A stretch of 64,000 nucleotides of DNA. Origin: a virus. Its lineage: Duplodnaviria > Caudoviricetes. Of the stretch, positions 1 through 24,232 are shown one piece after another (positions within the stretch are counted from its first letter, which is position 1; each line of letters begins with the position of its first letter). Location: positions 1 to 64,000 of IMG/VR virus record IMGVR_UViG_3300029288_004207. One strand, given 5' to 3'. A program made the translations under genes and the position numbers. The notes under the pieces were generated by a model. It searched no databases, was not told the DNA's origin, and worked only from the letters and a program-made list of their open reading frames with translations.

Positions 1-130
1 CTAAGGTTTAGCCAGCCGCCGACTGAAGTAGGCAGGGTAATGCCCTTGAGGTCACAACCGCTAAGGTCTAGCCAGCCGCCGACTGAAGTAGGCAGGGTAA
101 TGCCCTTGAGGTCACAACCGCTAAGGTTTA
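1..130. repeat. 60-bp tandem repeat (2 copies plus partial), coding
   Basis: 1-60 and 61-120 differ at one base; each unit encodes one 20-aa repeat on the minus strand. Confidence 0.95.
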
Positions 131-485
131 AGGATGATTTAAAGATTAACCCTTTAGGTAAATTTCCTACTAGTAATCTGCGAGCCGATTCAACTTTAAT
201 TTTGTTGCCGTCAATAATGATACGTTCCCCACGAGTTTCGCAAAAGACAATATGTTTTCCTTTTTCAAGATAGCCGCCAGCCTCCGAGCCTTGCCCATGT
301 AGACCACCACCACAAACAGGGCGAGAGTTAAAATCTGGTGCGATAGTCCATTGTCCTATTGGCTTCCACTTAAAGCCTTTAGCATTACTTGATGGTGATA
401 AACCGCCGTCATTTTCACAGCGTATCATCCAGTTGCCCGTTTTGATTGCGTTCTGTATTGCCTTGTCAATTTGTACCTTGTTCAT
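1..485 (-). CDS. Repeat protein with 20-aa LRR-like units (LDLSGCDLKGITLPTSVGGW); 3' end runs off the window
   Basis: ATG at 485; my translation MNKVQIDKAIQNAIKTGNWMIRCE...GLIFKSSLNLSGCDLKGITLPTSVGGWLDL... is open to base 1. Absent from the ORF track because no stop lies in the window. Confidence 0.85.
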   Translation of the reverse strand, partial: MNKVQIDKAIQNAIKTGNWMIRCENDGGLSPSSNAKGFKWKPIGQWTIAPDFNSRPVCGGGLHGQGSEAGGYLEKGKHIVFCETRGERIIIDGNKIKVESARRLLVGNLPKGLIFKSSLNLSGCDLKGITLPTSVGGWLDLSGCDLKGITLPTSVGGWLNL

Positions 486-500
486 TTTATCCCCTTTCAA

Positions 501-695
501 TCAGCACGTTATTAGTGCTGTTAATCGCCCGTATTTTCTCTGGTTAAAAATCGCCTTTCTTTTAGCAATATTATATTTGGTTGCCCTAAAAGTTAGTTTA
601 CCATCTTTTATACCAGATAGTGCCTTAACCATGTTTTCTCTTAATAATTGTATTTGTGACATTTTAATTCCCTTCCTATACCCTCTTATATCCAA
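501..695 (-). CDS. Hypothetical basic protein
   Basis: ORF co-oriented with neighbours. Confidence 0.5.
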   Translation of the reverse strand: MDIRGYRKGIKMSQIQLLRENMVKALSGIKDGKLTFRATKYNIAKRKAIFNQRKYGRLTALITC

Positions 696-960
696 TATTT
701 ATCGTGCCTTGTAATTCAGGCATATCAAGCGGAGTAAATATTACAGGATTAGTTATCGGCGGGTTAGGGTTATTGTTTACATCTTTACCGTTGTTCATAC
801 GGCGAGTTAAATAATCGTTGTTGGCTTTTACATAACCGTAGTCATCATTGGTATCATCAAGGTCTATATTCTTGCCAACGGGTAGCCGGATGGTTAACCA
901 TTTAGTCTCGTAACCAAGATATGCGAAAGCGATTGTTAAAATAATGATTGTTGCTATCAT
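676..960 (-). CDS. Hypothetical protein with N-terminal TM helix
   Basis: MIATIIILTIAFAYLG; GAGG upstream. Confidence 0.7.
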   Translation of the reverse strand: MIATIIILTIAFAYLGYETKWLTIRLPVGKNIDLDDTNDDYGYVKANNDYLTRRMNNGKDVNNNPNPPITNPVIFTPLDMPELQGTINIGYKRV

Positions 961-1077
961 GTTAAACCTCTTTTATACTCAAGACTATATTATCTAATAA
1001 CCTTATGCTTGAATTTATCCGGTATAACTATGCCCTTGAGGTCACACCCTCTAAGGTTTAAGGATGATTTAAAGATT

Positions 1078-1403
1078 CGTAACTATCCCTTCATAACCCG
1101 TAATCTTTCCAATTTTTTTCTTCAAGTGTTCTGATTCTCCATGCTTTAAATATACTGATTAAGTTAGTTATCAAATAATGAAACGGGTAATATTCGTGTT
1201 CATAATCATCTGCAAAACAACCACAACGAGGGCAATATAAATCCGTATCACCTGAATCACCACAATCAGTACCAACATCCTCACTTGAGCCTATCCAACC
1301 ACATGCTTGACATTTACACTCGTACCATTCATCTGACTTTTTAACTATTTTCCCGAACATTTCTACCTCCTACGGGTTGTCATGGTATACTTACCTAAAG
1401 ATT
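1078..1403. mobile_element. Small single-gene insertion flanked by an 8-bp direct repeat TAAAGATT
   Basis: TAAAGATT at 1070-1077 and 1396-1403; the uninterrupted allele at 131-160 has one copy. Confidence 0.65.
1091..1360 (-). CDS. Small Zn-finger-like protein (CxxC...CxxC) inside the insertion
   Basis: CQAC and CPRC motifs; AGGAGG RBS. Confidence 0.75.
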   Translation of the reverse strand: MFGKIVKKSDEWYECKCQACGWIGSSEDVGTDCGDSGDTDLYCPRCGCFADDYEHEYYPFHYLITNLISIFKAWRIRTLEEKNWKDYGL

Positions 1404-2155
1404 AACCCTTTAGGTAAATTTCCTACTAGTAATCTGCGAGCCGATTCAACTTTAATTTTGTTGCCGTCAATAATGATACGTTCCCCACGAGTTTCGCAAA
1501 AGACAATATGTTTTCCTTTTTCAAGATAGCCGCCAGCCTCCGAGCCTTGCCCATGTAGACCACCACCACAAACAGGGCGAGAGTTAAAATCTGGTGCGAT
1601 AGTCCATTGTCCTATTGGCTTCCACTTAAAGCCTTTAGCATTACTTGATGGTGATAAACCGCCGTCATTTTCACAGCGTATCATCCAGTTGCCTGTTTTA
1701 ATTGCGTTTACAATTGCTTTGTCTAGCTGTGCTTTATTCATTATACCCTCCAATATTTACTTTATGTTATTTTTTCGCTTGGCATTTCAACTTATTATTC
1801 AATGGTTAAGTCTTACATTCTTTAATTTAGACTATAAGTAAACTCGTTATCCTTTAACTTTTTAAGTGCTGATAATCCTACCCATTTATTATCATACCAA
1901 AGTAGGTATTTAAAATAACTGGCACTAATCGGGAATGATAATCCTTGCATTTATTTTAATCCTTTCGTTTGGCATTTTAAGCATATCCCTTTATAAGATA
2001 GGGTACGTTCTTTACAGTGTTTACAGTATATCCATTTGTCATTATGCACGGTTATACCTCTTTATAGTTTGTTATAAAGATTTATGGCAATTTTGACAAC
2101 CTTGTGATATCCATTTTGTACAGGTATTCATTTTATCCCCTTTCGTTATTAAGAT

Positions 2156-2389
2156 TTATAGTGCAGATAAACCACGTTTTTGAAGTTCTGAATAAAGTAT
2201 ATCCATCCAATCATCCCATGTAATAACAACCCACGAGTTACCTATATTTGTTCCCCATCCGTCCTGCCATACACGAGGTGTTTCTTTTTTTGCAACCTCC
2301 CAAACTGATAAAAGATTGCTGTCAGTCCATGAGCGCACACGATTAAGCGCAACATTGAAAGCCTTTGTTTCTAGTGATAAAGTATCCAC
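2156..2389 (-). CDS. Hypothetical protein
   Basis: ORF with purine-rich RBS. Confidence 0.65.
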   Translation of the reverse strand: MDTLSLETKAFNVALNRVRSWTDSNLLSVWEVAKKETPRVWQDGWGTNIGNSWVVITWDDWMDILYSELQKRGLSAL

Positions 2390-2615
2390 ATTATCCCCTT
2401 TCTAATTATTACTAAACTGATATTTTGTTAGTGCTTCCATTTGGGATAAGCTTTTACGCTTAACTAAGGTATTATCAAGGTATTTCATAAAGGCATAGTT
2501 TTCTCCGTGTATTATCCATACTGGCAAGTTAAATACTTCCATTATTTTATATTCCTTTCTCTATACGTGCTAGTCACCTAGTCACGCTTACTATTTTATA
2601 GGGTTATGCCTCTTA

Positions 2616-2870
2616 TTACTCCCGATTGTTACCCATGAATATTTCAATATCACGGTATGTATATTTTATCCCTAGTGCTTTACATGTTGCCTGTATTGCC
2701 CTCCCATCCTTGTTAAAAGTTTTTGCTATAAAAGCCTTACGCATTTTACCTATTACTATAGGTACTTCTGATACAGGATAACAATATTCTGCCGGATACT
2801 TGGTTATGACTTCCGTTAATTTTTGCTCATAGATAGTCATAAACTTGTCAAAATTCGCTGTTGTTTCCAT
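2616..2870 (-). CDS. Hypothetical phage-type early protein
   Basis: ORF with GAAAGGA RBS. Confidence 0.75.
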   Translation of the reverse strand: METTANFDKFMTIYEQKLTEVITKYPAEYCYPVSEVPIVIGKMRKAFIAKTFNKDGRAIQATCKALGIKYTYRDIEIFMGNNRE

Positions 2871-2941
2871 TGTTTCAATTCCTTTCTAATTTAATCCCCT
2901 CATAGGTGATTACCTTAATAACCACCTATCAAGAGATTAGC

Positions 2942-3277
2942 TTATAGAAAGCCACCGGGCGGGGGATAATTTTCAGCTTCAATGTTTTCGATACTGTTTG
3001 AGACATCTGGTTGGATAACTGACCCAATATCAACCTCATCACCGTTTACATCTGCAAAACCGTAGGAAATAGGTTCACGGTTTCCATCTTCCGTTATCCA
3101 ACAGAGGTGAAGCCCCGATGGCTTTAGAGCCACGTTTATTAGCCTTATAGCCTTGTCCAACGGCTCAATCCCTGTAATTGGTCTGCAATTCTCACATAGT
3201 AAACCAAGCGGATAGACCGTCGGATTGTGTTCTGTTTCAAATTCGTTCTTACATTCAGCACAATTAGTTTTAAACAT
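2942..3277 (-). CDS. Hypothetical Zn-ribbon protein (probable start MFKTNCAEC)
   Basis: CxxC pairs; GGAG upstream of the ATG at 3277. Confidence 0.65.
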   Translation of the reverse strand: MFKTNCAECKNEFETEHNPTVYPLGLLCENCRPITGIEPLDKAIRLINVALKPSGLHLCWITEDGNREPISYGFADVNGDEVDIGSVIQPDVSNSIENIEAENYPPPGGFL

Positions 3278-3278
3278 G

Positions 3279-3536
3279 TTACTTACTCTCCACTCTGAAC
3301 ATAAGTGTTCTGCCTGAATCCTTGTAAAGTGCCAGTACGCAAGGTAATAGTTTGAAGAGTACAAATTCTAGGGATAACCCTAGAAAGTTCCACGTAAAGC
3401 CGGTGTAATCGTTTCTCATTGTTTTATCTCCTATCGGGTAAATATTTACTATCTCGTAACATAAAGGACACTGATAATATTTAGGCCATTCAAAATTGAA
3501 GTTCTCCATTTCACTATGACATTCAGGGCATTTCAT
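3279..3536 (-). CDS. Hypothetical Zn-ribbon protein
   Basis: MKCPEC...CPLC. Confidence 0.6.
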   Translation of the reverse strand: MKCPECHSEMENFNFEWPKYYQCPLCYEIVNIYPIGDKTMRNDYTGFTWNFLGLSLEFVLFKLLPCVLALYKDSGRTLMFRVESK

Positions 3537-3538
3537 AG

Positions 3539-3928
3539 TTAGTTTACCTCGGAAATTTTAAGCCTTAAAAGTAAGTCCATAAGTTGCTCGTGAATTTGGG
3601 GGTGAAATAGGTATTCATCAAACACCCGTTTCACTTTCTCGTATCTCTCTGGTGACTTTTCTTTTAAGAGATTACGACCCCATTCTACTAGTTCTTTTTC
3701 TGCTTCGATTTTAGCGTCAGTGATGGCACTCCAGTTAAACTTTTTATCAACTTCGATTAGTGCCTGTATTGATTTTCCCTTGTCTTTTACATCGTAAGCG
3801 GGGCCGACTTCCTTGATATACTGCGGGTAGACGTTATCATAATGCGCTTTAGTTGATATGTAGTTGAGTTGTGCCGGTGACATTCCCATCGCCGTTCGTA
3901 TTGCTTGTCTCATTTCTGTGTTATTCAT
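3539..3928 (-). CDS. Hypothetical protein
   Basis: ORF with AGGAGG RBS. Confidence 0.8.
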   Translation of the reverse strand: MNNTEMRQAIRTAMGMSPAQLNYISTKAHYDNVYPQYIKEVGPAYDVKDKGKSIQALIEVDKKFNWSAITDAKIEAEKELVEWGRNLLKEKSPERYEKVKRVFDEYLFHPQIHEQLMDLLLRLKISEVN

Positions 3929-3975
3929 CTTTCTTTTTCCTCCTGTTTATTTGTCTGACCTTATCAAGAGATTAA

Positions 3976-4116
3976 CTATTGATTTTCTTTGCGGTTAATA
4001 CACCATTCTAGGCGTGTACAGGAGTTATAACCTCTCCGATAATTACAATAGTAACTAAGATTCGTACATTTACCTGTGATTGGTCTTTTTACTGTTCCCC
4101 TTACTTTACGTGTCAT
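3976..4116 (-). CDS. 46-aa hypothetical protein (MTRKVRGTVKRPITGKC...)
   Basis: Own translation; GAAAGGGG RBS shared with neighbours. Confidence 0.55.
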   Translation of the reverse strand: MTRKVRGTVKRPITGKCTNLSYYCNYRRGYNSCTRLEWCINRKENQ

Positions 4117-4199
4117 TTGATTTTCCCCTTTCTAATTTAATCCCCTTTTATTTTATATCCTTAATAGATATTGAATAGACGTGTATTTATAATTGCTAT

Positions 4200-4385
4200 C
4201 TAAAGTACTTTAATAACTCCAGCATACTCTAATGCTTTTAAGAGGTTTAACATTCGGTCTGCTTCTTGCGTGTAGTTCCATTTAAATTTAGGGTTGGAGT
4301 TTATTATGAAACTAGCTAAACTCTCTTCCGCAGAGTTTACTGCGGTATCATCCTTAAGGACTTTTGCTAGGGTCGTTACATCCAT
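4200..4385 (-). CDS. Hypothetical protein, IR-bracketed
   Basis: ORF with RBS; arms at 4161-4185 and 4400-4424. Confidence 0.75.
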   Translation of the reverse strand: MDVTTLAKVLKDDTAVNSAEESLASFIINSNPKFKWNYTQEADRMLNLLKALEYAGVIKVL

Positions 4386-4465
4386 TATTACCCCTTTCCT
4401 ACACGTCTATTAAGTATCCATTAAGTGTTTAGCAAATGATGACTAGACAAGGACTAATTCTATTT

Positions 4466-4768
4466 TTACTTAATTGCTTTGATAAAGTATCTATCGGCAT
4501 GGTGGTTAGCTCCTTCATGCCGGTAAGCGATACAGGCGGCTATTGCTGAATCAACGGTAGAAAAAGATTCGGAACAACATCTGCCATCAACATAGGGATG
4601 ATATTCGTACTTGCGGGTATTAATTTTGGATGTCCCTGCGTTCCCTTCAAAAACATGAGGGTGAGATTGAACAATAGCATAAGAGAAAAACTCATGGATT
4701 TTTATTACTTCACCCCACGTATAAGGTTTACCCTCTTTTAGTTCCTGTAAATTTGTAGTAGTATTCAT
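4466..4768 (-). CDS. Hypothetical phage-type protein, IR-bracketed
   Basis: ORF; arms at 4427-4452 and 4784-4809. Confidence 0.8.
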   Translation of the reverse strand: MNTTTNLQELKEGKPYTWGEVIKIHEFFSYAIVQSHPHVFEGNAGTSKINTRKYEYHPYVDGRCCSESFSTVDSAIAACIAYRHEGANHHADRYFIKAIK

Positions 4769-4864
4769 TTATCCACTTTCCGCCCTTGCCTAGTAAACAG
4801 TTGCTAAACATTTTCATCTTATTTACCGGATAGTGCTAGATGGTGAGTTAGGAATTACAGAATT

Positions 4865-5239
4865 TTAACCGTAAATTACATCGCCATAAAGCGCACATTG
4901 TAACCATACATCGGCGGTTATGGCATCATCGTTTTCCGTTTGCCAGTCTGCAAAATGACTGGGATATTTTTTAGCCATAATGGATAACCCTTTTAAGCAT
5001 TTTTTATAATCAAGTATTACGTGTGCTTTTTCAGGCTCTTCCAGGCTAGAAAAAACGATTGCCCCGCCGTTAAATGGCATCTGACAATGAGGAAATTCTA
5101 ATTTGAGAGTATCGGCGGTTTTCCCTTCTGGATATATGTATTTTTCTATCATATACCAGTAGTTACTCCCGCCTTCAGTTGCATTAGTAAGTAAGTCCTC
5201 AATACGTTGGTCATTGACACTGATTCTAATTTTAGCCAT
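4865..5239 (-). CDS. Hypothetical phage-type protein (probable start MAKIRIS), IR-bracketed
   Basis: GGAG RBS before 5239; arms at 4822-4852 and 5261-5290. Confidence 0.8.
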   Translation of the reverse strand: MAKIRISVNDQRIEDLLTNATEGGSNYWYMIEKYIYPEGKTADTLKLEFPHCQMPFNGGAIVFSSLEEPEKAHVILDYKKCLKGLSIMAKKYPSHFADWQTENDDAITADVWLQCALYGDVIYG

Positions 5240-5339
5240 TGTAAATACTCCATATTCTAACCTACTCACCACCTAGAATTATCCGGTAAACTTATAGACT
5301 ATTTATATTGACGGATAGTGCCTAGATAGGAATTATTGA

Positions 5340-5537
5340 TTATTGGTAAATAATTGATACGTCTTTTTCCTTGAAATATTCTGACAATTCCAATTCAGGA
5401 AAATAGACTAAAATTGGATAGTTACTATTTATATCTATTTCAAGTACATTCCCCATTTTGCACTGGAATAATGTAGGGTTATGAGAATCAGGTGAATAAT
5501 TAATTCTAACGATATTCCCTTTTGATATAGTGTTCAT
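5340..5537 (-). CDS. Small beta-rich hypothetical protein, IR-bracketed
   Basis: ORF with RBS; arms at 5305-5331 and 5556-5582. Confidence 0.7.
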   Translation of the reverse strand: MNTISKGNIVRINYSPDSHNPTLFQCKMGNVLEIDINSNYPILVYFPELELSEYFKEKDVSIIYQ

Positions 5538-5553
5538 TGATAATTCCTTTCCT

Positions 5554-5845
5554 AGTCCTATCTAGGAATTATCCGTCAATATGTTTCCGGTTTAACATAG
5601 AGCCTGCAACTTGCGGACTCAAATAACCTAGATTGTTAAGTACTCACATAATGGTATAGAGTAGTATCATATTAAATATAGTCCTATTGTATCCAAATTG
5701 CAACACCTGCACTATAAAGATTTCATAAATTTTTCATAAAGATTTCTATATATAATATGTAAGCACTTACTAGTTTTTAATACTGAAAAACGGCATGTAT
5801 TTATCAGGTCTAAAAATAGCATGAGACACGCTATAATCAAAATTT
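5554..5845. repeat. 292-bp direct repeat, copy 1 (leftward promoter and leader region)
   Basis: Matches 10124-10415 (offset 4570); ends exactly at the ISL3 terminus. Confidence 0.95.
5675..5703 (-). promoter_or_regulatory. Sigma70-type promoter TTGCAA-N17-TATATT (second copy at 10245-10273)
   Basis: Consensus-like boxes with 17-bp spacer, facing the leftward operon. Confidence 0.55.
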
Positions 5846-5882
5846 GGCTTTCCGGCGAATAGCGTGTAACGTTCATTCAAAA

Positions 5883-7163
5883 CTATACCTCCCCTAACAT
5901 TTCGTTTAGTGTGGAAAAGCGGACGCCGTAATACTTAATTTCTCCCAGTGTAGTGAAGGGCGGTCGTACTTCCAATGACCTGTCAAAAACAGGGCGGTGA
6001 AATGTAGGCAAGTTAGAGTAAAGCAACTTTGCCCGTATCGCCTTGAACGAGTACCCCCTGCCTGTATGATTGGTTAGCTTCACAAGCCCTGCTATCGCCT
6101 CGGTATAGGCGTTGGTGATTGGATGCTCCCACCATGCGAATATCTCGGCTTTCCAGTTGCCCACAGCCGTTGTGAGAGGCTTAAAGGCGGGCTGTAGCTC
6201 GGTCGGGATGCTTGCCTTAAGGGTTTCATACCGCTCTATGGCTTCCTGCCTGTCCTTGACCATCCAGAGGTCACAGAAGTCCTCTTTGAACTGGTACGCC
6301 TTGCCAAGCATAGGGAACTGCCCTAACCATAGGTCAAGTATGAACTGGTCTTGTTCGTCAAGGTCGCTCCGGCGATGGAATAGGATATAGCGGTCACGCT
6401 TCAGTGTCCGGCGTTGACGCGCGGTAAGGTGTGCCCTGGTATCTTTTCTTACCGTGTCCATGCCCTGAATGGCTAACCGGATAACGTGAAAGCGGTCTAT
6501 AACGACTGTGGCTTGCGGTAGAATGTCATTCACAGCGTCTTTATATGGCTGCCACATGTCCATAGCCACAAGCTGTATTCGCTGGCGGTCGGGGAGCTGG
6601 TGAAGGTAACGGCTAACCACGTCTTTAGTCCTCGATGTCAGCATATCAATGACGGTATTTTTCTCTACGTTGGTCAGTATGCACCTTGCTTTTCTCACAA
6701 GGTGGACTTCATCTATCCCCAACCATCGGGGTGTCTCAAACTTGACCTCGCTATCCAGCCTAGCCACTTCTAAACCGAACAAGCGCCGGACTGTCCGCTC
6801 ATGGATTCCGGTATCATCGGCTACACTTACGAACGTGCGCTTCATGCTTTCCTTGCCGATATAGCCTAGTAACCGGAGCGTGGCTGCGTGGTTTTTGTCC
6901 ATGTCCGGTAGTGGCTGGAAACTGGTTTTACCACAAGCTCGACAGTAATAACGTTGCCGATGCACAATTAGCCCAACACGCTTGTTGTGAATAGGCAAGT
7001 CCATAAATCGTTGCCTCTTGATACCATGCCGGTATAGTTCCCCCACTACTCCGCATCGGATACAGGCTTGAGGCTCCGGCGTATACTTCGCATGGATAGC
7101 GTAGTCATACTCGCTCTCTTTGACTTCCAGCAGTTCCCAATCTGGTAGATTCAGTATGTTCAT
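5883..7163 (-). CDS. ISL3-family DDE transposase
   Basis: N-terminal CxxC Zn finger, GIDEVH, AMDMWQPY, IDRFHVI, TNAYTEAI motifs. Confidence 0.95.
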   Translation of the reverse strand: MNILNLPDWELLEVKESEYDYAIHAKYTPEPQACIRCGVVGELYRHGIKRQRFMDLPIHNKRVGLIVHRQRYYCRACGKTSFQPLPDMDKNHAATLRLLGYIGKESMKRTFVSVADDTGIHERTVRRLFGLEVARLDSEVKFETPRWLGIDEVHLVRKARCILTNVEKNTVIDMLTSRTKDVVSRYLHQLPDRQRIQLVAMDMWQPYKDAVNDILPQATVVIDRFHVIRLAIQGMDTVRKDTRAHLTARQRRTLKRDRYILFHRRSDLDEQDQFILDLWLGQFPMLGKAYQFKEDFCDLWMVKDRQEAIERYETLKASIPTELQPAFKPLTTAVGNWKAEIFAWWEHPITNAYTEAIAGLVKLTNHTGRGYSFKAIRAKLLYSNLPTFHRPVFDRSLEVRPPFTTLGEIKYYGVRFSTLNEMLGEV

Positions 7164-7251
7164 GCTAATTCCTTTTCAGCAAATACGTTCTTTATCCTGC
7201 CAGCACATACGCACCTAGCAAATACGTTGTTCATGTTTATACGCTTATGCT

Positions 7252-7512
7252 CTAGGGGTGTTCGGGGTCACCCTGCCCCTGAATGTTTACCTCGGCTACC
7301 AGATAGTCAGTCGGGGCAGTGGATATCAAGCTCCAATCGCCCCCGTGTTTGTGCCAGATATGCTCTTTGATATCTTCCCAATCCTCTTGTGAGTGTGTCC
7401 ACGTCTGCCCACAGCCTCGGCAGTAATGCCAGCAATGGAATATGCCTTGCTGGTCTGGATTGCGTAACGTGATTTTAGCCATTATCTGTCCCTCCGGTTT
7501 CGTATTCATCAT
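7252..7512 (-). CDS. ISL3 passenger; C2H2-like Zn-binding protein
   Basis: CRGC...HIWHKH. Confidence 0.65.
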   Translation of the reverse strand: MMNTKPEGQIMAKITLRNPDQQGIFHCWHYCRGCGQTWTHSQEDWEDIKEHIWHKHGGDWSLISTAPTDYLVAEVNIQGQGDPEHP

Positions 7513-7539
7513 CCCCGCAATTAGGGCAATATCGTATTC

Positions 7540-7752
7540 TCATCCCTTTGCCTCCCGCTTAGCTACTTGCCTTTTAGCCTCGTCTATTTGGTAAGGCTCT
7601 AGTTCAATCCAATGATTAGCTAATATCTTAAGGGCTTTAGTTTCATCTATCCCTAGTTGTAGTAATATCACCAAAAGACATTCTGTGCATATGTAAGAAC
7701 AGTTATAAGACCCGCATATAGTACAATCTGCTCCGGTATCATTTACACTCAT
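7540..7752 (-). CDS. ISL3 passenger; Cys-rich hypothetical protein
   Basis: CTIC...CTEC; GAGG RBS. Confidence 0.6.
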   Translation of the reverse strand: MSVNDTGADCTICGSYNCSYICTECLLVILLQLGIDETKALKILANHWIELEPYQIDEAKRQVAKREAKG

Positions 7753-7893
7753 TGTCTATTACCTCTAGTCCATTATGAACTTTGTTTAGCAAGGTGTAAT
7801 AGGTAGATTTCCACGGGTTATCCTGCCATAGTTCAGGGTGTTTAGCTTGTCTTTCGTGTTCTGATAGCAGTTTAGCTAGTGCCTCAACGTATT

Positions 7894-8154
7894 TCAAATC
7901 AACCCCCCTTTATAAAGCCCATTGGCACATTCTTTGATATAGTCCCTCGGTAATTCCCAAGTTATCCTATTAAATGGGTCATCAAATCGGCGAATCTTAA
8001 CACAAGGGATATTACCGCCAATACCATCCACTGCTAGCATATGGTAACCATCCCTATCTTTACCAAGGTATAGCCCTGTAAATTGGCGAGTACCATACCT
8101 GCCATAACCAGTAGAGCCGATAACCTTTTCTCCAACACAAATACGATGTGTCAT
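7894..8154 (-). CDS. ISL3 passenger; hypothetical protein
   Basis: ATGA overlap with upstream ORF. Confidence 0.65.
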   Translation of the reverse strand: MTHRICVGEKVIGSTGYGRYGTRQFTGLYLGKDRDGYHMLAVDGIGGNIPCVKIRRFDDPFNRITWELPRDYIKECANGLYKGGLI

Positions 8155-8372
8155 CGTGTCATCCTCACGGCTAGTATTTCAGCTCCACAAACTTTCATAT
8201 TCTGCCAACGTTCATAATTAGGCTGATGTATAGCCTGCGGGTGATTGCACTCTTGACATCCAAATTCCGGCTGGTTTCCACCAAGAGAATTATATTGACA
8301 CCGGCTACACTTTAAGTGATTGACAAACTGTTGGTCGGCAGGACAGGTGTCTAGAATACAAGTTAATTTCAT
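8151..8372 (-). CDS. ISL3 passenger; Cys-rich hypothetical protein
   Basis: First ORF after the internal promoter. Confidence 0.65.
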   Translation of the reverse strand: MKLTCILDTCPADQQFVNHLKCSRCQYNSLGGNQPEFGCQECNHPQAIHQPNYERWQNMKVCGAEILAVRMTR

Positions 8373-8407
8373 TTTCTCGCCCCCTGTTTCAACACTATCT
8401 GCCTATT

Positions 8408-8436
8408 ATTATACACACTACATGCCGAGATGTCAA
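8408..8436 (-). promoter_or_regulatory. Consensus sigma70 promoter TTGACA-N17-TATAAT inside the IS end
   Basis: Exact consensus; faces passengers and transposase. Confidence 0.85.
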
Positions 8437-8464
8437 TATCCTAACCCTTGCATTTTCAAACATT

Positions 8465-8725
8465 CTATTCTATACTATTTGCCGAATAGCCAATTTTTAC
8501 AATACAACCTAACCAGCCTTCTCTAATCACATAATCCAGTACTGTTCCCTCTCCAAAACCGTTAGTATTAGCTATAACTTTATCTCCAATTTTAGGCGGG
8601 AATTGTTCATTAGTCCACTTGCCTAATGGAGCAATACCGGATAGTACTAAATGTTGCTCACCAACAGCGAAAACTCCAACTTGTCTACCGTCTGGTAAAG
8701 TTTCAACATGATTAAGAGCTAACAT
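8465..8725 (-). pseudogene. Hypothetical protein truncated by ISL3 after ...CIVKI
   Basis: Last codons (GYSANSIE) lie inside the IS terminus. Confidence 0.7.
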
Positions 8726-8817
8726 ATTACCCCTTTCTTACACGTCTATTAAGTATCCATTAAGTGTTTATTAAACTTATGCTTACAAGTTAGATTCTGG
8801 CGTGGTTTACATTTATT

Positions 8818-9678
8818 TTATACTGTTACTGGTGTTTTTTGTGTCAAAAAGTTAAATGCTTTTTGTGCTTGACTTGCCGCCGATATTATGAATTTTGAAT
8901 CGTTTTTTAATACTTCCAACCATCCGTTAATATACGCTTGTGAGTTATTGGTAATTGTAGCCTCTAACCCACATTCAAAACACGCCATATTAGAGCCTAT
9001 CTCTGCGACTAATTCCTCTTTTGCGTATTTATCACTCCCGTATCTTGTCATATCTATACGGTTTAAACGTGTCTCGTGTCCAGTCCAGTGTGTCAATTCG
9101 TGAAATGCTACATTATAAAATTCATTGACTTTTTTAAACTGGTTTAACGATGGTAAATTTATGATATCAAAAGTAGGACTATAACACGCTTCATCAGTTC
9201 CGTAGACAATGTTAGGGTTAAGGTTATTGAGAAGTGTTTCCGCTTTATCAACTGGTAGTAATTCCGATTTTTCAATGGTTACATATTTGTCAATTGGCGC
9301 ATTAGTTTGCTCAATGTTAAAAACGTAATAATAACGTAGTAAGTGAAGCGTTTTTTCTGTTAATTCCTCTTCACCATTATCATTAGTACTTGACTTGGTA
9401 ACAGATACGTTTTTAGTAAACACAACTAAATTACCTTTTGCTCCATCGTTAACCTTATAACCATTTTCAGTTATTTGTTTGAAGCTGGCAAAAAGCGGGT
9501 TAGTCCATTTGTTTGACATCATGTTCAAGTTTAGTAATAGCGTGTTTATACCAGTGTATTTATGGTTGGAAATAAAGTTTTTCAATGTTCCATTAGTAAC
9601 CCAAGTTTTTTGCCATGCGATTTTACCGTGTTTTAACCCATCAATTACAAGATTGGTTACTATTTCGGGTACGTTCAT
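8818..9678 (-). CDS. ardC: ArdC-family antirestriction protein (ssDNA-binding plus zincin-like domain)
   Basis: PW-like WQKTW, YTGINTLLL, FHELTHWTGHETRLNR, YAKEELVAEIGS motifs. Confidence 0.9.
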   Translation of the reverse strand: MNVPEIVTNLVIDGLKHGKIAWQKTWVTNGTLKNFISNHKYTGINTLLLNLNMMSNKWTNPLFASFKQITENGYKVNDGAKGNLVVFTKNVSVTKSSTNDNGEEELTEKTLHLLRYYYVFNIEQTNAPIDKYVTIEKSELLPVDKAETLLNNLNPNIVYGTDEACYSPTFDIINLPSLNQFKKVNEFYNVAFHELTHWTGHETRLNRIDMTRYGSDKYAKEELVAEIGSNMACFECGLEATITNNSQAYINGWLEVLKNDSKFIISAASQAQKAFNFLTQKTPVTV

Positions 9679-9797
9679 TTATATTCCTTTTCCAACCACG
9701 CCAGAATCTAACTTGTAAGTATTCTATTAACCCTTGTAACCGGTAAACATTTATGTTATTTATATTGACGGATAGTGCCTAGATAGGAATTATGTTA

Positions 9798-10106
9798 TTA
9801 ACAACCCATTCTGCGCTCTGCACGTTCTTCTGCTAACATTGCGTGAAGTATTCTAGTTTCTTCAATATCCTCTTCATACATAGTACGAGCGATTATTTCT
9901 GCCTGTTCTTCTCTGATACCAATGGGAAGAGAAACTGGGCAATCTTTACCATGTTGGATATTGAAGCTAGGTTTAAAAGTCACATCATCGTCATAATCGT
10001 TATCGGGATGATACCAGTTACGTATAATAGTAACTGTGACTTTTTCTCCATCCTTGCAATAGTATGTATCTCTTATATCTGGCAAATTGAATCCATCATC
10101 ATACAT
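9798..10106 (-). CDS. Hypothetical protein, IR-bracketed
   Basis: ORF with RBS; arms at 9762-9788 and 10126-10152. Confidence 0.75.
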   Translation of the reverse strand: MYDDGFNLPDIRDTYYCKDGEKVTVTIIRNWYHPDNDYDDDVTFKPSFNIQHGKDCPVSLPIGIREEQAEIIARTMYEEDIEETRILHAMLAEERAERRMGC

Positions 10107-10123
10107 TGTTTGTAATTCCTTTC

Positions 10124-10415
10124 AGTCCTATCTAGGAATTATCCGTCAATATGTTTCCGGTTTAACATAGAGCCTGCAACTTGCGGACTCAAATAACCTA
10201 GATTGTTAAGTACTCACATAATGGTATAGAGTAGTATCATATTAAATATAGTCCTATTGTATCCAAATTGCAACACCTGCACTATAAAGATTTCATAAAT
10301 TTTTCATAAAGATTTCTATATATAATATGTAAGCACTTACTAGTTTTTAATACTGAAAAACGGCATGTATTTATCAGGTCTAAAAATAGCATGAGACACG
10401 CTATAATCAAAATTT
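10124..10415. repeat. 292-bp direct repeat, copy 2
   Basis: Matches 5554-5845. Confidence 0.95.
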
Positions 10416-10625
10416 AAGGGGTTAAAATCTTTTTTTGGTACAATCTATCATAAAAACAATTTAACAACCTTATTTTTAAAAATCAAAGCTAAAATCTTAC
10501 ACGGTATAGTGTAGGGTATTCATAGTATTTATGTAAAGTGTCAGGGTGTCAAGGGGGAAAATATTAGAACTAAAATACTAATATTATGTTAATATTGCGT
10601 TTGGGAATTGTTAAAATATAAGGCG

Positions 10626-10655
10626 TGACGATATGTGACGATACGTGACGTTATT
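10626..10655. repeat. Three tandem 10-bp repeats GTGACGATAT/GTGACGATAC/GTGACGTTAT
   Basis: Direct reading; lies in a long non-coding region. Confidence 0.7.
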
Positions 10656-10842
10656 TAAGCGTATCGCCACGATTGACGGGGTATGACTGGATAACGCCGA
10701 GGTAACGACTACTAACGTCACACAATAGGGGATTAAATTTGAGGATTTAACCAAAATATTATCGTCAGGGTATATAGATAGGTAGACGACAGGGATAGAA
10801 ATTAATTACTGTCAAGGTGTGGTCTGACGTTATTTTAATCAG

Positions 10843-10986
10843 TTAGGTATGAGTAACTTTATAGCCTTTTATTGGTTTATGGAGCTTGTAAGATAAGAGT
10901 ATCGGCGAGCCACCTTTTTCTCCCCATCGCTGAAATGCCGTTGTGCCATACTTTTTTCTTATTTTCTCAACGCTACGTTTAGCCAT
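10843..10986 (-). CDS. 47-aa basic protein with a WGEKGG motif
   Basis: Own translation MAKRSVEKIRKKYGTTAFQRWGEKGGSP...; own promoter and RBS. Confidence 0.65.
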   Translation of the reverse strand: MAKRSVEKIRKKYGTTAFQRWGEKGGSPILLSYKLHKPIKGYKVTHT

Positions 10987-11021
10987 TTTTCTCACCCCAC
11001 TTTCTTTTACGAGACTACCTT

Positions 11022-11050
11022 AGTATAGCAAGGATAAGCCTGAATGTCAA
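11022..11050 (-). promoter_or_regulatory. Sigma70 promoter TTGACA-N17-TATACT
   Basis: Divergent partner of the 11083 promoter. Confidence 0.75.
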
Positions 11051-11082
11051 GGTCTATCGTGAAAATATTCTTGAAAAACTAC

Positions 11083-11111
11083 TTGACAAATAAGACATAT
11101 ATTGCTATAAT
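11083..11111 (+). promoter_or_regulatory. Sigma70 promoter TTGACA-N17-TATAAT with extended -10 TG
   Basis: Exact consensus. Confidence 0.9.
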
Positions 11112-11143
11112 ACAGAAAGTGATATATAGCGTCACAGGAGTTA

Positions 11144-11488
11144 ATGGTTATGTTAAAAAAGAAAAAAACAATGAAGTTAGGTTTATCGCAACAGGAATTT
11201 TTAATATCTGCTAGTTTAGATGATAGTCCTAAACATGGGTATGCAATATCAAAGGAAATTTCAGACCATACAAGCGGATTAGTAAAATTTAGTGCTAGTA
11301 CGCTTTATGGGAATATAAAGAATATGCAAGATAGGGGGTTAATTAAACTAGAAGAAACTAAAGAGCAATCAGGTAGGTTGCAAAAAATATATGGGCTTAC
11401 TGATTTAGGTAAAACTAATTATGTAAGTCAATCAAAGGTGTTAAAAATGTTTATGAGTAAAAATAAGAAAGGACAAAACAATGAATAA
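11144..11488 (+). CDS. PadR-family winged-helix transcriptional regulator
   Basis: PKHGYAI...STLYGNIKNMQDRGLI...KIYGLTDLG. Confidence 0.9.
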   Translation: MVMLKKKKTMKLGLSQQEFLISASLDDSPKHGYAISKEISDHTSGLVKFSASTLYGNIKNMQDRGLIKLEETKEQSGRLQKIYGLTDLGKTNYVSQSKVLKMFMSKNKKGQNNE

Positions 11489-12176
11489 AAAGGTACAAGC
11501 GATATTAGTTCTAGACGAAAGCGGAAGCATGGGAGTAATAAAGGATAAAACAATATCTTGTGTTAATGAATATATCAACAGCCTATTGCCACAGGGAAAG
11601 ATGTGTCACATTACCTTGGTAAAATTTCGCCAAGATGATATATCTTTTATTTGTGAAGATGTTCCAGTTAAGGATGTTCCTAAGTTAGATTACAATAGAT
11701 ATAAACCTAATGGGGGAACACCATTATTGGATGCGGTTGGTAAAACGATAAAAGCTACACAAGCACAGATTGATAAGGCTAAAGATAAACCAGATATTCT
11801 TTTTATTGTTATGACGGATGGTGAAGAAAATAGTTCAAGGGAGTACAATCAAAAACAAATAATAGATATGATAAGTGAAAAAGAAAAAGTTGGTTGGACT
11901 TTCGTTTATCTTGGAGCTAATCAGGATTCTTGGGCTTCAGCTTCAGGTATAGGCTATGCTTCTAGAGGTAATGTGCTAGATTTTGTAGCAAGTGATAATG
12001 GCATGGAAAAAGTAATGTCAAGAACTATCGGGGCTACAGCAAAATATTTTAGTGGTAGGAAGCAATTCTATGCTACTCATGCTTTAGCAGGGCATGATTT
12101 AGATAAAGTATCTTATAGTACAAAAACATTTTATGGTAAAAATAAAAAGGAAGGTGGAAAATATGGCAAATCCTAA
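11481..12176 (+). CDS. VWA-domain protein
   Basis: MIDAS LVLDESGSM, GGTPLLDA, IVMTDGEENSS. Confidence 0.9.
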   Translation: MNKKVQAILVLDESGSMGVIKDKTISCVNEYINSLLPQGKMCHITLVKFRQDDISFICEDVPVKDVPKLDYNRYKPNGGTPLLDAVGKTIKATQAQIDKAKDKPDILFIVMTDGEENSSREYNQKQIIDMISEKEKVGWTFVYLGANQDSWASASGIGYASRGNVLDFVASDNGMEKVMSRTIGATAKYFSGRKQFYATHALAGHDLDKVSYSTKTFYGKNKKEGGKYGKS

Positions 12177-17626: not shown

Positions 17627-18571
17627 CTAGGGCTGTTCCACCTGTTTCACACGAACCGGAATCTGATTCAGAAAGTTCGCAAACATAGGTGTCTCGCTCT
17701 TGCGATGATTATAGCGGAATGAATATTCGTTAACGTAGGATTGGAGATACTTAGGGGAAACATTATGATACACACCACCGATACCACGCTTAACGAGCGA
17801 CCAGAAACCCTCAATGGTGTTCGTGTGAACGATGCCACGAGAATACTCGTGTATGGAATGATTCACTATTTGATGGTTATAACCGTTCTTGTTAAGCGGG
17901 TTGTATGCGCTCATTTCATCCGTGTAAACAGTGGTGTTAGGCTCTACGTTCTCTTTTACTTGGGGTATAATGGTTGCTTGGTCAGTATTAGGCACAACCA
18001 CCGCTTTAACATCGCCCTTGCGTTCTACAGCCCCGAATACGGGCGTTTTGTCCGCCGTGCCACGACCTGTGAGGTTGGCACGTTTGGAATCGTGCATGTT
18101 GATTGCCTTACCACCCATGTATGTCTCATCAAGTTCTACTTCACCGGAAAGCATTTTATTCTCGCCCAAGAGGGTACGAATCTGTTTGAACATACGCCAT
18201 GCTGTTTTATAGGTAACTCCAAGTTCACGTTGAAGCTGTTTAGCAGATATGCCACAGCGAGTAGAGGACATGAGGTATATAGCGTAAAACCAAGAGCGCA
18301 AAGAGGTCTCGGACTTATGGAATATGCTGTTAGCCGTTGGGGATACATGGCTTCTGCAAAACTTGCAGGTATATACTTTACGATTGGCTATTCTGTAATG
18401 TGTAGTTACCCTATCGCACTTCTGGCAGAATACGCCTTGCGGATAACGGAGTTTCAAGAGTATATCAAGGCACTCATTATCGGTAGGAAATTGCTTGTTA
18501 AATTCTTTGATTGTAAACTTTGTAGTAGTCATATTGCTCCTTTGGTTAATAAGTATGTTTAATTGTAGCAT
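17627..18571 (-). CDS. IS1595-family DDE transposase (probable start MTTTKF at 18532)
   Basis: Zn ribbon CQKC...CKFC, VELDETYMGG, VYTDE, HTNTIEGFWSLVKRG, YVNEYSFRYN; element ends not resolved. Confidence 0.95.
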   Translation of the reverse strand: MLQLNILINQRSNMTTTKFTIKEFNKQFPTDNECLDILLKLRYPQGVFCQKCDRVTTHYRIANRKVYTCKFCRSHVSPTANSIFHKSETSLRSWFYAIYLMSSTRCGISAKQLQRELGVTYKTAWRMFKQIRTLLGENKMLSGEVELDETYMGGKAINMHDSKRANLTGRGTADKTPVFGAVERKGDVKAVVVPNTDQATIIPQVKENVEPNTTVYTDEMSAYNPLNKNGYNHQIVNHSIHEYSRGIVHTNTIEGFWSLVKRGIGGVYHNVSPKYLQSYVNEYSFRYNHRKSETPMFANFLNQIPVRVKQVEQP

Positions 18572-23167: not shown

Positions 23168-24232
23168 ATGAAAATGATACGCACAGTCAAGATAAATAGC
23201 CCGGTAAATAAGGGTAAACTTCAAGGGATACGCGAGTTTCTTGTAGAGTACCAAAACTGTGTTAATTACTTCATTGCGAGACTGTGGAGCGAACAACGTT
23301 TTCGCGGCTCATATCTGGATAAACCCTATATAGCTTCGGCGCGGAAACGATTTAATCTCACCGCCCGTTTAATCCAGTGCGCGGGGAAACAAGCGTTTGA
23401 AGTTGTTAAGTCACAGCGTAAAAAAGATACCAAACAATTTCCAAGATTCAAGACACTATCGGCTACACTGGATAGCCGTTTTTGGTCAATTACTGATAAC
23501 GAAAACACCTTTAATTGGTTAAAACTACAGTCAGGTTTTACTTACTTAATCCCGTTTACCAAGTCTAAACTTTGGGATAAGTGGCTTGAAAAAGGATTTA
23601 TACTCTCCAAATCTATGCGAGTTAGTATCAGAAAAGATAAACTAGAGCTAGAGTTTTTCTTTGAGCATGAATCACCGGAACTTAAACCCATTGGAAACAC
23701 CGAGGGATTAGATTTAGGGTACGTTAATCTAGCAACATGTTCTGATGGGCAGATGGTCGGCATGAGATTAAATCAGTTTATCCGTACATTCCCCAAACGC
23801 AAAAAACATACACATAAGACTATAACAAACAAGGTTTATCAAGAGCTAAAATCCCTTGATTTAAGCAAGATTAACACACTTGTTTTAGAGAACCTTAAAC
23901 GAGTAAAGCATAATACACGTGAGACGTTCTCACGAACACATAACAGGCGTTTATCTCATTGGCTATATGCCAAGGTGATTAGATGGTTGGAACAACGCTG
24001 TGAGGAACAGGGAATCCGCATAGAATACAAATCTCCCTGGAAAACTTCACAGAATTGTTCAGTCTGCCACAAATGGGATAAACGAAATCGTAACGGTGAA
24101 AGGTTTAAATGTGTAAACTGTGGGCATGAGGAACATGCGGACGTAATCGGCTCACAAAACCTCAAGTCGTTAGGATTGGCGGGAGTCTATAGTCTCCGTT
24201 TATTACCAACTCTTAATGGTGGGTGTCTATGA
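23168..24232 (+). CDS. tnpB: TnpB RNA-guided endonuclease (IS200/IS605-type)
   Basis: RuvC-I GLDLG, RuvC-II LVLENL, Zn finger CSVC...CVNC, RuvC-III HADVIGSQN. Confidence 0.92.
   Translation: MKMIRTVKINSPVNKGKLQGIREFLVEYQNCVNYFIARLWSEQRFRGSYLDKPYIASARKRFNLTARLIQCAGKQAFEVVKSQRKKDTKQFPRFKTLSATLDSRFWSITDNENTFNWLKLQSGFTYLIPFTKSKLWDKWLEKGFILSKSMRVSIRKDKLELEFFFEHESPELKPIGNTEGLDLGYVNLATCSDGQMVGMRLNQFIRTFPKRKKHTHKTITNKVYQELKSLDLSKINTLVLENLKRVKHNTRETFSRTHNRRLSHWLYAKVIRWLEQRCEEQGIRIEYKSPWKTSQNCSVCHKWDKRNRNGERFKCVNCGHEEHADVIGSQNLKSLGLAGVYSLRLLPTLNGGCL

Follow-up and report, generated by a model that had tools for sequence, protein, structure and literature searches.

Single genes enclosed by inverted-repeat arms in a virus-like element: a candidate array of RNA closing helices

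The window analysed here, a stretch of 64,000 nucleotides, is part of the 80.5-kb record of a virus-like element from a landfill. Between positions 4160 and 10152 it contains six inverted-repeat pairs (P1 to P6), whose arms are 26–31 nt long, 85–100% complementary and separated by 214–886 nt, with one leftward gene inside each pair (Table 1). An initial annotation had pointed out these pairs; all six are present, at the coordinates it gave to within 1–3 nt, and the single leftward ORF it placed between each pair of arms was recovered (exactly one in 6/6 pairs). The enclosed genes lie at the promoter-proximal end of a leftward operon. The leader of this operon adjoins a divergent PadR regulator gene (11144–11488), and vWA, TelA and IS1595 are other neighbours of the array. 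The gene proposed to be ardC matched the Pfam families ArdcN and MPTase-PolyVal, and the perfect 26 bp reported around it were found as such (26/26), extendable to 29. The array is split by an ISL3-family IS, and the GC-richer five-gene block was probably inserted together with or next to this IS. No 3′ arm matches the orphan 5′ arm, which therefore represents a degraded cassette.

Table 1. Parts of the array and adjoining features, with positions in the window.
Feature	Position	Strand	Remarks
P1 3′ arm	4160–4185	−	23/26 paired with 4400–4425; starts 14 nt past stop
P1 cargo, 61-aa ORF	4200–4385	−	Without family match
P1 5′ arm	4400–4425	−	Ends 14 nt upstream of ATG, immediately before SD GGAAAGGGG
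P2 3′ arm	4426–4452	−	23/27 paired with 4784–4810
P2 cargo, 100-aa ORF	4466–4768	−	Stemless 49% homologue in viral contig L007
P2 5′ arm	4784–4810	−	Partner of 4426–4452
P3 3′ arm	4822–4848 (to 4852)	−	24/27 paired with 5261(64)–5290, plus bulged extension
P3 cargo, 124-aa protein of phage family phrog_2355	4865–5239	−	Homologues elsewhere often stem-enclosed
P3 5′ arm	5261–5290	−	L297 identity restarts inside, at 5283
P4 3′ arm	5305–5331	−	25/27 paired with 5556–5582; identical to 9762–9788
P4 cargo, 65-aa ORF	5340–5537	−	
P4 5′ arm	5556–5582	−	Identical to 10126–10152; own SD is alternative pairing partner
Leader/promoter region, second copy	5583–5845	−	100% identical to 10153–10415; truncated by IS
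ISL3-family IS	5846–7260	−	Transposase 5883–7163; left end exact, right end approximate; splits array
Five-gene block, GC-richer	7252–8440	−	Own consensus promoter 8436–8408; missing from L297
86-aa ORF, 5′ arm only	8465–8725	−	
Orphan 5′ arm	8739–8764	−	Copy of P1 5′ arm; 3′ partner absent
P5 3′ arm (ardC)	8779–8807	−	28/29 paired with 9694–9722; core 8782–8807/9694–9719 perfect, 26/26
ardC (anti-restriction family)	8818–9678	−	ArdcN and zincin MPTase-PolyVal
P5 5′ arm	9694–9722	−	Partner of 8779–8807
P6 3′ arm	9762–9788	−	25/27 paired with 10126–10152
P6 cargo, 102-aa ORF	9798–10106	−	Stemless 47% homologue in L018
P6 5′ arm	10126–10152	−	L297 identity stops inside, at 10138
Leader of leftward operon	10153–10415	−	Promoter-like sites 10273–10236

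Inverted repeats of at least 24 nt and at least 85% complementarity numbered six in the 80.5-kb record and zero in every one of 20 block shuffles, which excludes chance as the source of the arm pairs, and the rest of the record outside 4160–10152 contains no comparable pair. Positions 1–12000 gave no Rfam match at E ≤ 1, and plasmids and phages contained nothing similar to the region by megablast. No convincing promoter or terminator was found between the cassettes. The motifs TTGACG and GATAAT within the arms are spaced by just 1 nt and thus cannot make a promoter, so this candidate was rejected. A Frpo-like single-stranded-DNA promoter was rejected as well, since the 290-nt leader has only a weak fold (z = −2.1) without a long promoter hairpin.

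Across the tabulated cassettes, the 5′ arm ends at a median of 16.5 nt upstream of the start codon, the 3′ arm starts at a median of 10 nt downstream of the stop, and arms never overlap an ORF or SD. With one strand of the stem upstream of the SD and the other downstream of the stop, the placement therefore fits translation. The helices span 24–37 bp (median 27 bp), with in silico duplex energies of −21 to −56 kcal/mol, and the MFE and centroid structures predicted for a 1446-nt four-cistron RNA each contain 4/4 closing stems. Most stems contain a central 3-nt internal loop, N·N / U-A / U·C on the coding strand, flanked by ~11–13 bp on each side. This shared mismatch geometry had been described for five stems; it is present in P1, P2, P3, P4 and P6, in P2 only in a looser form, and because the arms of P4 and P6 are identical, these stems provide four independent instances. 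The bubble is not universal: the stems of ardC and of the contigs L012 and L008 are perfect or contain wobbles only.

The first position of the bubble is A·C on the coding strand and would be a G·U wobble on the opposite strand, so a strand preference has to rest on positions outside the bubble. There, three further substitutions had been noted that form G·U only on the coding strand, and we find them, one each in P1, P2 and P3. Over all stems, transition mismatches give G·U on the sense strand 36 times versus 22 times on the antisense strand, which is not significant overall (p = 0.09); ~15 of these 22 lie at the conserved bubble by hand count. The more stable duplex is that of the sense strand in 20/28 stems and of the antisense strand in 7/28. 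The bias towards the coding strand is supported by the positions outside the bubble and by the sense duplexes, and not by the overall ratio. The asymmetry is strong only with the bubble set aside, and a non-template C-to-T bias could contribute to it. Single-stranded DNA also tolerates G·T wobbles, so that ssDNA of sense polarity may account for the coding-strand bias too.

In total, ~30 cassettes of the same build were found in independent metagenomic assemblies, and 30/30 tabulated genes share the orientation of their own array. One contig (L059) contains at least nine consecutive stem-enclosed genes, L008 and L012 have 3/3 genes enclosed in each, and the layout is also present in L011, L013 and L297. 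The otherwise stem-free contigs L006, L082 and L039 each contain a lone P3-family gene enclosed by a stem; homologues of this family in cultured phages are only ~30% identical. Exact scans of viral contigs with two arm motifs of the window type gave 0 matches, and scanning them with a 15-mer from L059 gave single chance matches only. Arm sequences vary among cassettes, with a median alignment score of 20.8 for a cassette's own pair versus 7.0 for non-own pairs (95th percentile 11.3); alignment scores were used for this comparison, as RNAduplex energies are uninformative across loci of mixed GC content. In L059, at least two Watson-Crick pair types occur in 22/34 stem columns, and own arms pair at 29–33/34 positions in 7/8 cassettes, the eighth row of the comparison being mis-registered, whereas non-own arms pair at 23 positions on average. 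Pairing is kept up across lineages as distant as those of SD-using and SD-less hosts. The initial annotation had staked its reading on the arms being conserved and covarying in homologous loci: the layout recurs there and in unrelated loci, and covariation is evident both from compensatory changes and from own versus non-own complementarity. These comparisons support selection on the pairing of the arms.

The relative L297 illustrates the turnover of cassettes. Both of its flanks are 99.8–99.95% identical to those of the record, and the cassettes between them differ, in agreement with the variable cargo that had been predicted. Both ends of the divergent block fall inside 5′ arms (5283 and 10138), near their common GATAAT core. 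The ardC of L297 is an 87%-aa allele with arms of its own, and its cassettes A and B retain the outer half of the stem and the bubble, with inner halves that are new yet match each other. Within the record, the identical arms of P4 and P6 enclose unrelated cargo.

From these observations we propose, with moderate confidence, that the arms form long-range RNA helices through which each cistron becomes self-contained, and that these helices are probably cut by RNase III. The promoter-proximal genes would be transcribed from the leader as a polycistronic RNA, in which each cistron would be closed by its own helix of 24–37 bp, formed by the 5′ arm before the SD and the 3′ arm after the stop. A dsRNA-specific enzyme, most likely the RNase III of the host, would then cleave at or near the central loop and yield monocistronic mRNAs with 5′ and 3′ ends held together by the inner half-helix. 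In this way, every gene would become a context-independent, probably stabilised expression unit, with possible effects on stability and translation, and such units could be gained, lost and swapped among related elements with their neighbours undisturbed. RNase III substrates can have a central loop flanked by about one helical turn of helix on each side, and the ~27-bp helix with its central loop and about one turn per side fits this geometry. The 80.5-kb record itself encodes no RNase III. The annotation had likewise suggested that a polycistron is cut into end-paired or circularisable single-gene RNAs, and the selected pairing, coding-strand bias, recurrence and variable cargo agree with part of its interpretation. 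Circularisation has no specific support: RtcB was not found in the 80.5-kb record, and its sole RNA-ligase-family gene is frameshifted and located in the replication module.

Close parallels are the RNase III stems of 16S and 23S rRNA, which are likewise long-range helices of ~25 bp formed from both sides of the product. Their cleavage has to await transcription of the complete unit, as would the predicted cleavage here. ORF-bearing IVSs of 23S rRNA show that a small ORF can be enclosed in the same manner as the array genes. As in these systems, the array has a flanking helix of at least ~20 bp (in silico) and compensatory pairing. Unlike them, it encloses ordinary mobile-element cistrons that encode proteins, with a stem for each gene throughout the run, and its stems are exchangeable modules. 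The processing sites of T7 early mRNA (R0.3–R1.3) also punctuate an early phage operon and have an upper stem, internal loop and lower stem of about one helical turn each, like the array stems; however, they are local intergenic hairpins, whereas in the array a whole cistron separates the two strands of a site. The non-significant 36:22 ratio, the non-universal bubble and the stemless homologues of the cargo count against RNA processing. Such homologues exist for P2 and P6 (Table 1) and for ArdC at 48% identity, so that these genes can do without the stems.

The stems may also work in the RNA without being cut, as end clamps or as a translational switch, which we consider rather unlikely. In the switch version, which would apply to some cassettes, the 5′ arm would first pair with its own SD and be drawn off by the 3′ arm only when transcription of the cistron is complete. 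In P4, P6 and cassettes A and B of L297, the 5′ arm (GGATAAT..) can indeed fold on the SD region (GGAATTAT) at −9.7 to −14.4 kcal/mol, cassette A of L297 has a compensatory change (CUCU...AGAG) in this local hairpin, and in the full transcript fold the long-range stem outcompetes it. The local hairpin is missing in P1, P2, P3 and P5, and plain end-clamping needs no helices of at least 24 bp with a central loop. The bubble could in turn be an anti-determinant that blocks cleavage, like some Correia elements, which are reported to be bound by RNase III without cleavage (PMC2649163).

Structure-based exchange of gene cassettes had been the other suggestion of the annotation. In such an attC-like DNA system, the arms would fold in ssDNA, and a recombinase would excise, insert or swap single genes. 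The array resembles integron cassettes in its co-oriented, promoterless units behind one common leader and its variable content between relatives, and attC sites in being defined by structure, variable in sequence and conserved in unpaired core bases. The P4/P6 arms, the cassette sets that differ between near-identical L297 flanks with borders by the GATAAT core, and the single P3-family copies in stem-free contigs would all fit. Nevertheless, we regard this explanation as improbable. Neither tyrosine (PF00589) nor serine (PF00239) recombinases, Y1 transposase or reverse transcriptase were found in the 80.5-kb record, beside the array or elsewhere, although about half of the element may be missing from the record and the lack of an adjoining IntI has to be read in that light. 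There is no GTTRRRY core and no compact attC palindrome (57–141 bp, R/L boxes) after an ORF; instead the arms flank the ORF, so that the gene splits them and 200–900 nt would have to be looped out, far above any attC loop. A DNA site would also have no reason to lie so close to the SD and the stop codon, and the turnover is equally explained by ordinary homologous recombination in conserved flanks, involving a relative of ~85% identity.

It is still less probable that the inverted repeats lack a function and merely arose during gene acquisition, by insertion into the loops of pre-existing hairpins or as MITE- or mobile insertion cassette (MIC)-like ends. The same genes do without stems elsewhere, the orphan arm shows that arms can decay, and within a lineage the arms have a diverged consensus (GATA..CTAG/CTGG) in common, a pattern expected of a repeat family. 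By-products, however, would not keep compensatory changes and own-arm specificity across distant lineages, and the variety of arms is too great for one transposase. Conserved, transposase-matched TIRs were not found, the arms do not resemble the ISL3 and IS1595 ends, no consistent target-site duplication or flanking direct repeat is visible around the cassettes, and the 80.5-kb record contains no gene-less copy of an arm hairpin. The CREE/nemis repeats of Neisseria have ~26-bp inverted arms and form a transcribed hairpin that is bound by RNase III and cleaved or protected (PMC2649163). Their arms are conserved transposon-like ends around 50–100 nt without a gene, in contrast to the cassette-specific, co-varying arms of the array, which enclose whole genes. 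That every gene is an inverton, flipping between its repeats, is very improbable: inverted repeats 200–900 bp apart are the usual hallmark, but every tabulated gene points in the direction of its array, searches of the record for PF00239 and PF00589 yielded no invertase, and the conserved mismatches sit mid-arm, where a recombinase needs identity.

The literature searched yielded no account of stems that enclose genes in the operons of phages or plasmids, and the gene-by-gene stem-enclosed operon layout seems undescribed, as the initial annotation had supposed. PeSL cassettes of T4-type phages (PMC2839356, PMC4122927) are comparable in having conserved intergenic motifs at small accessory genes in hyperplastic regions, with gene gain, loss and replacement between close relatives. 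PeSLs, however, are direct repeats with an early promoter and a local, terminator-like stem-loop, whereas the array arms are inverted, promoterless and pair across the gene. Tentatively, the arrays may represent a general, structure-defined cassette format of certain phage- and plasmid-like elements from several bacterial lineages, in which the RNA helix would serve for processing, insulation and sometimes as an RBS switch, and also as an exchange boundary. Should the stems serve in processing or insulation, they would represent a new organisation of accessory genes, in which each cistron is wrapped like ribosomal RNA, expressed independently of its neighbours and swappable as a unit. This would explain how hyper-variable anti-defence regions, here with ardC, work despite the turnover of their content. 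It would also provide a searchable signature for metagenomes and natural insulator parts, the counterpart of the insulators used in synthetic biology for context-independent operon genes. In the lone P3-family cassette of L006, the 5′ arm begins ~8 nt past the predicted transcription start.

The initial annotation had described six inverted-repeat pairs, each around one gene, and all six are present where it placed them, every pair surrounding exactly one leftward ORF (cassettes P1-P6 in the table). They are the sole inverted repeats of at least 24 nt with at least 85% complementarity and a spacing of 100-1500 nt in the 80,562-nt IMG/VR virus record (G000), and each of 20 block shuffles contained zero such repeats. 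On the coding (minus) strand of the window cassettes, the 5' arm ends 14-21 nt ahead of the start codon, immediately upstream of the Shine-Dalgarno sequence, and the 3' arm begins 8-14 nt past the stop; successive cassettes are separated by 0-42 nt. Across 30 cassettes from all loci, the medians are 27 nt for the arm, 16.5 nt for the 5' gap and 10 nt for the 3' gap. The mismatch geometry said to be shared among the stems was likewise recovered: five of the six carry a central bubble (N.N, U-A, U.C) between an outer helix of 10-13 bp and an inner one of 11-13 bp, and the ardC stem is perfect. In a 1446-nt four-cistron RNA all four closing helices are predicted in both the MFE and the centroid structure, and the opposite strand of this region is predicted to fold about equally well.

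Features of the array, the record and compared contigs (window coordinates unless stated)
Feature	Location	Remarks
Cassette P1	4160-4425, minus strand	61-aa ORF
Cassette P2	4426-4810, minus strand	100-aa ORF
Cassette P3	4822-5290, minus strand	124-aa ORF (phrog_2355)
Cassette P4	5305-5582, minus strand	65-aa ORF
Cassette P5	8779-9722, minus strand	286-aa ORF (ArdC)
Cassette P6	9762-10152, minus strand	102-aa ORF
Repeat with P4/P6 arms and leader	5556-5845; 10126-10415	100% identical
ISL3-family IS	5846-7260	inserted exactly at upstream end of second leader copy
5' arm of 86-aa gene	8739-8764	only arm retained
Downstream operon genes	1-4116	no arms
Iteron-like repeats	10620-10660	GTGACGATAT GTGACGATAC GTGACGTTAT
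Possible 5' arm/Shine-Dalgarno pairing	5522-5585 (P4); 10090-10155 (P6); L297 8855-8915, 9232-9295	5' arm GGATAAT..
ORF-less modules	L059 2791-2895, 4391-4492	~100 nt; 25-27-nt stems
Inverted repeat	L005 3879-4201	21-24 nt, 92-95% complementary
Transposase genes	23168-24232; 17627-18571	
3275-aa ORF	25670-35497	NUDIX, HAD-phosphatase, intein/HINT domains
Tandem 60-nt repeats	1-130	record start
Paralogous segments	140-492; 1396-1748	95.8% identical
RNA-ligase-family gene (PF09414)	G000 78386-78878; L298 14305-15019	beyond window; split into two overlapping frames

The P4 and P6 arms are identical and belong to a longer repeat that also contains the operon leader. The ISL3 element, together with a block of five genes that is richer in GC and has a promoter of its own, breaks the array; the 86-aa gene is found beside this insertion. 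Arms are absent from the tightly packed genes further downstream, and the feature is therefore a trait of the promoter-proximal genes of the leftward operon. This operon faces a PadR regulator gene, and the divergent control region that separates the two contains iteron-like repeats.

Other contigs were reached through homologues of the 124-aa P3 product. All three genes are enclosed on L008 (homologue with 80% amino acid identity, arms of 26-31 nt) and on L012, as are three genes on L011 and one on L013; one L011 pair has the window-type bubble (GGATAATTCCTAG / GGATAGTGCCTAG). On L059, which is AT-rich and without Shine-Dalgarno sequences, an unbroken run of at least nine genes lies in stems of 25-40 nt, and on L006, L082 and L039 the homologue is the only gene enclosed. 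Most other homologues of the 124-aa protein (e.g. L018-L020) sit in compact phage operons that have no arms, and ArdC homologues at 48% identity are without stems; the stems thus characterise certain element lineages and are not required by the genes. Two stem-closed modules of L059 have no ORF and a co-varying inner helix, and may represent small RNAs or regulatory units that are packaged just like the genes. The inverted repeat of L005 surrounds 275 nt whose only ORFs are short (55 aa), overlap and lie on opposite strands; this stretch may be a structured RNA.

Cargo is variable, as the initial annotation had envisaged: cassette content differs between G000 and the landfill viral scaffold L297 (NCBI JBINNZ010005212.1; the JBINNZ accession series appears in the data statement of PMC12607003, on the Sandtown landfill samples), although the flanks of the array are 99.95% identical over 8.9 kb on one side and 99.75% over 5.3 kb on the other. 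The L297 array comprises two other cassettes, with ORFs of 93 and 75 aa, an ardC cassette with just 85% nucleotide identity to that of G000, and then P3-P2-P1. Missing from it are P6, the 86-aa gene, the IS block, the second leader and P4. At each end, the block that differs stops within a 5' arm, close to a shared GATAAT core, which leaves L297 with a chimeric P3 stem whose outer half is partly mismatched. The new cassettes follow the same rules as those of the window. In one of them, cassette A, the outer half-stem and bubble are those of P4/P6, and the inner half is new on both arms; P4 and P6 present the converse case, with identical arms and leader and unrelated ORFs exchanged almost exactly from RBS to stop. 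In P4, P6 and two L297 cassettes, the 5' arm can also pair locally with its own Shine-Dalgarno region. This predicted pairing, with one compensatory change in cassette A, suggests that this sub-family of four cassettes has an additional switch, which the 3' arm may release.

An attC-like single-stranded-DNA cassette system would explain both the turnover and a recognition by structure, but it would need loops of 200-900 nt, and no recombinase was found in the G000 record and the array neighbourhood. Invertons, in which genes are flipped between the repeats, are disfavoured, since each of the 30 enclosed genes tabulated has the orientation of its array and no invertase was found.

Arm sequence varies from cassette to cassette, also where homologous cassettes at different loci are compared, and complementarity is kept within each pair, with a median alignment score of 20.8 for own pairs versus 7.0 for non-own pairs (95th percentile 11.3). 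The L059 arms have a common core, which reads GATATTCTGGAAC on the 5' side and, on the 3' side, GATATTTTGAAAC when reverse-complemented. The outer and inner parts of these arms vary from one cassette to the next, in step within any one cassette, and 22 of 34 stem columns hold at least two Watson-Crick pair types. Such varied and co-varying arms do not fit transposon-type terminal repeats, nor does the maintained pairing fit neutral by-products. The mismatches are non-random: transitions yield 36 G.U pairs on the coding strand against 22 on the other (about 15 of the latter, by hand count, at the conserved bubble position), and the more stable duplex is formed by the coding strand in 20 of 28 stems and by the opposite strand in 7. 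Together with the maintained, co-varying pairing, these biases point to selection on folding of the mRNA or of same-polarity DNA, as originally proposed, with mutational strand bias as a caveat to the coding-strand preference.

From sequence comparison, the arms fit long-range RNA helices that would make each cistron a closed unit. This is supported by the co-variation with arbitrary arm sequence, the coding-strand bias, the position of the arms just outside the path of the ribosome, and a helix of at least two turns with a central internal loop. RNase III acts on the 16S/23S processing stems, IVS and T7 early mRNA sites, and by analogy the helices are probable substrates of this enzyme; cleavage would yield mRNAs with ends clamped by the inner half-helix. 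The literature searched contained no description of stems that enclose genes in operons of phages or plasmids. RNase III processing stems of rRNA are covered in PMC6582327, and a precedent for transcribed inverted arms as targets is provided by the Neisseria Correia elements, whose 26-bp arms are reported to be bound or cleaved by RNase III (PMC2649163).

A Dehalococcoidales MAG of the same landfill carries an ISL3 copy with 94% nucleotide identity to this one, both ending at the same base, which gives a weak hint as to the host. The element bears several insertion sequences; of two further transposase genes, one matches PHROG families phrog_506 and phrog_12300 and the other belongs to the IS1595 family. 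The RNA-ligase-family gene adjoins a PAPS-reductase-like gene and a PolB/exonuclease module. The 3275-aa ORF resembles the polyvalent proteins that phages and conjugative elements deliver. Tandem repeats and two paralogous segments lie near the record start, past which L297 extends by about 4.6 kb.
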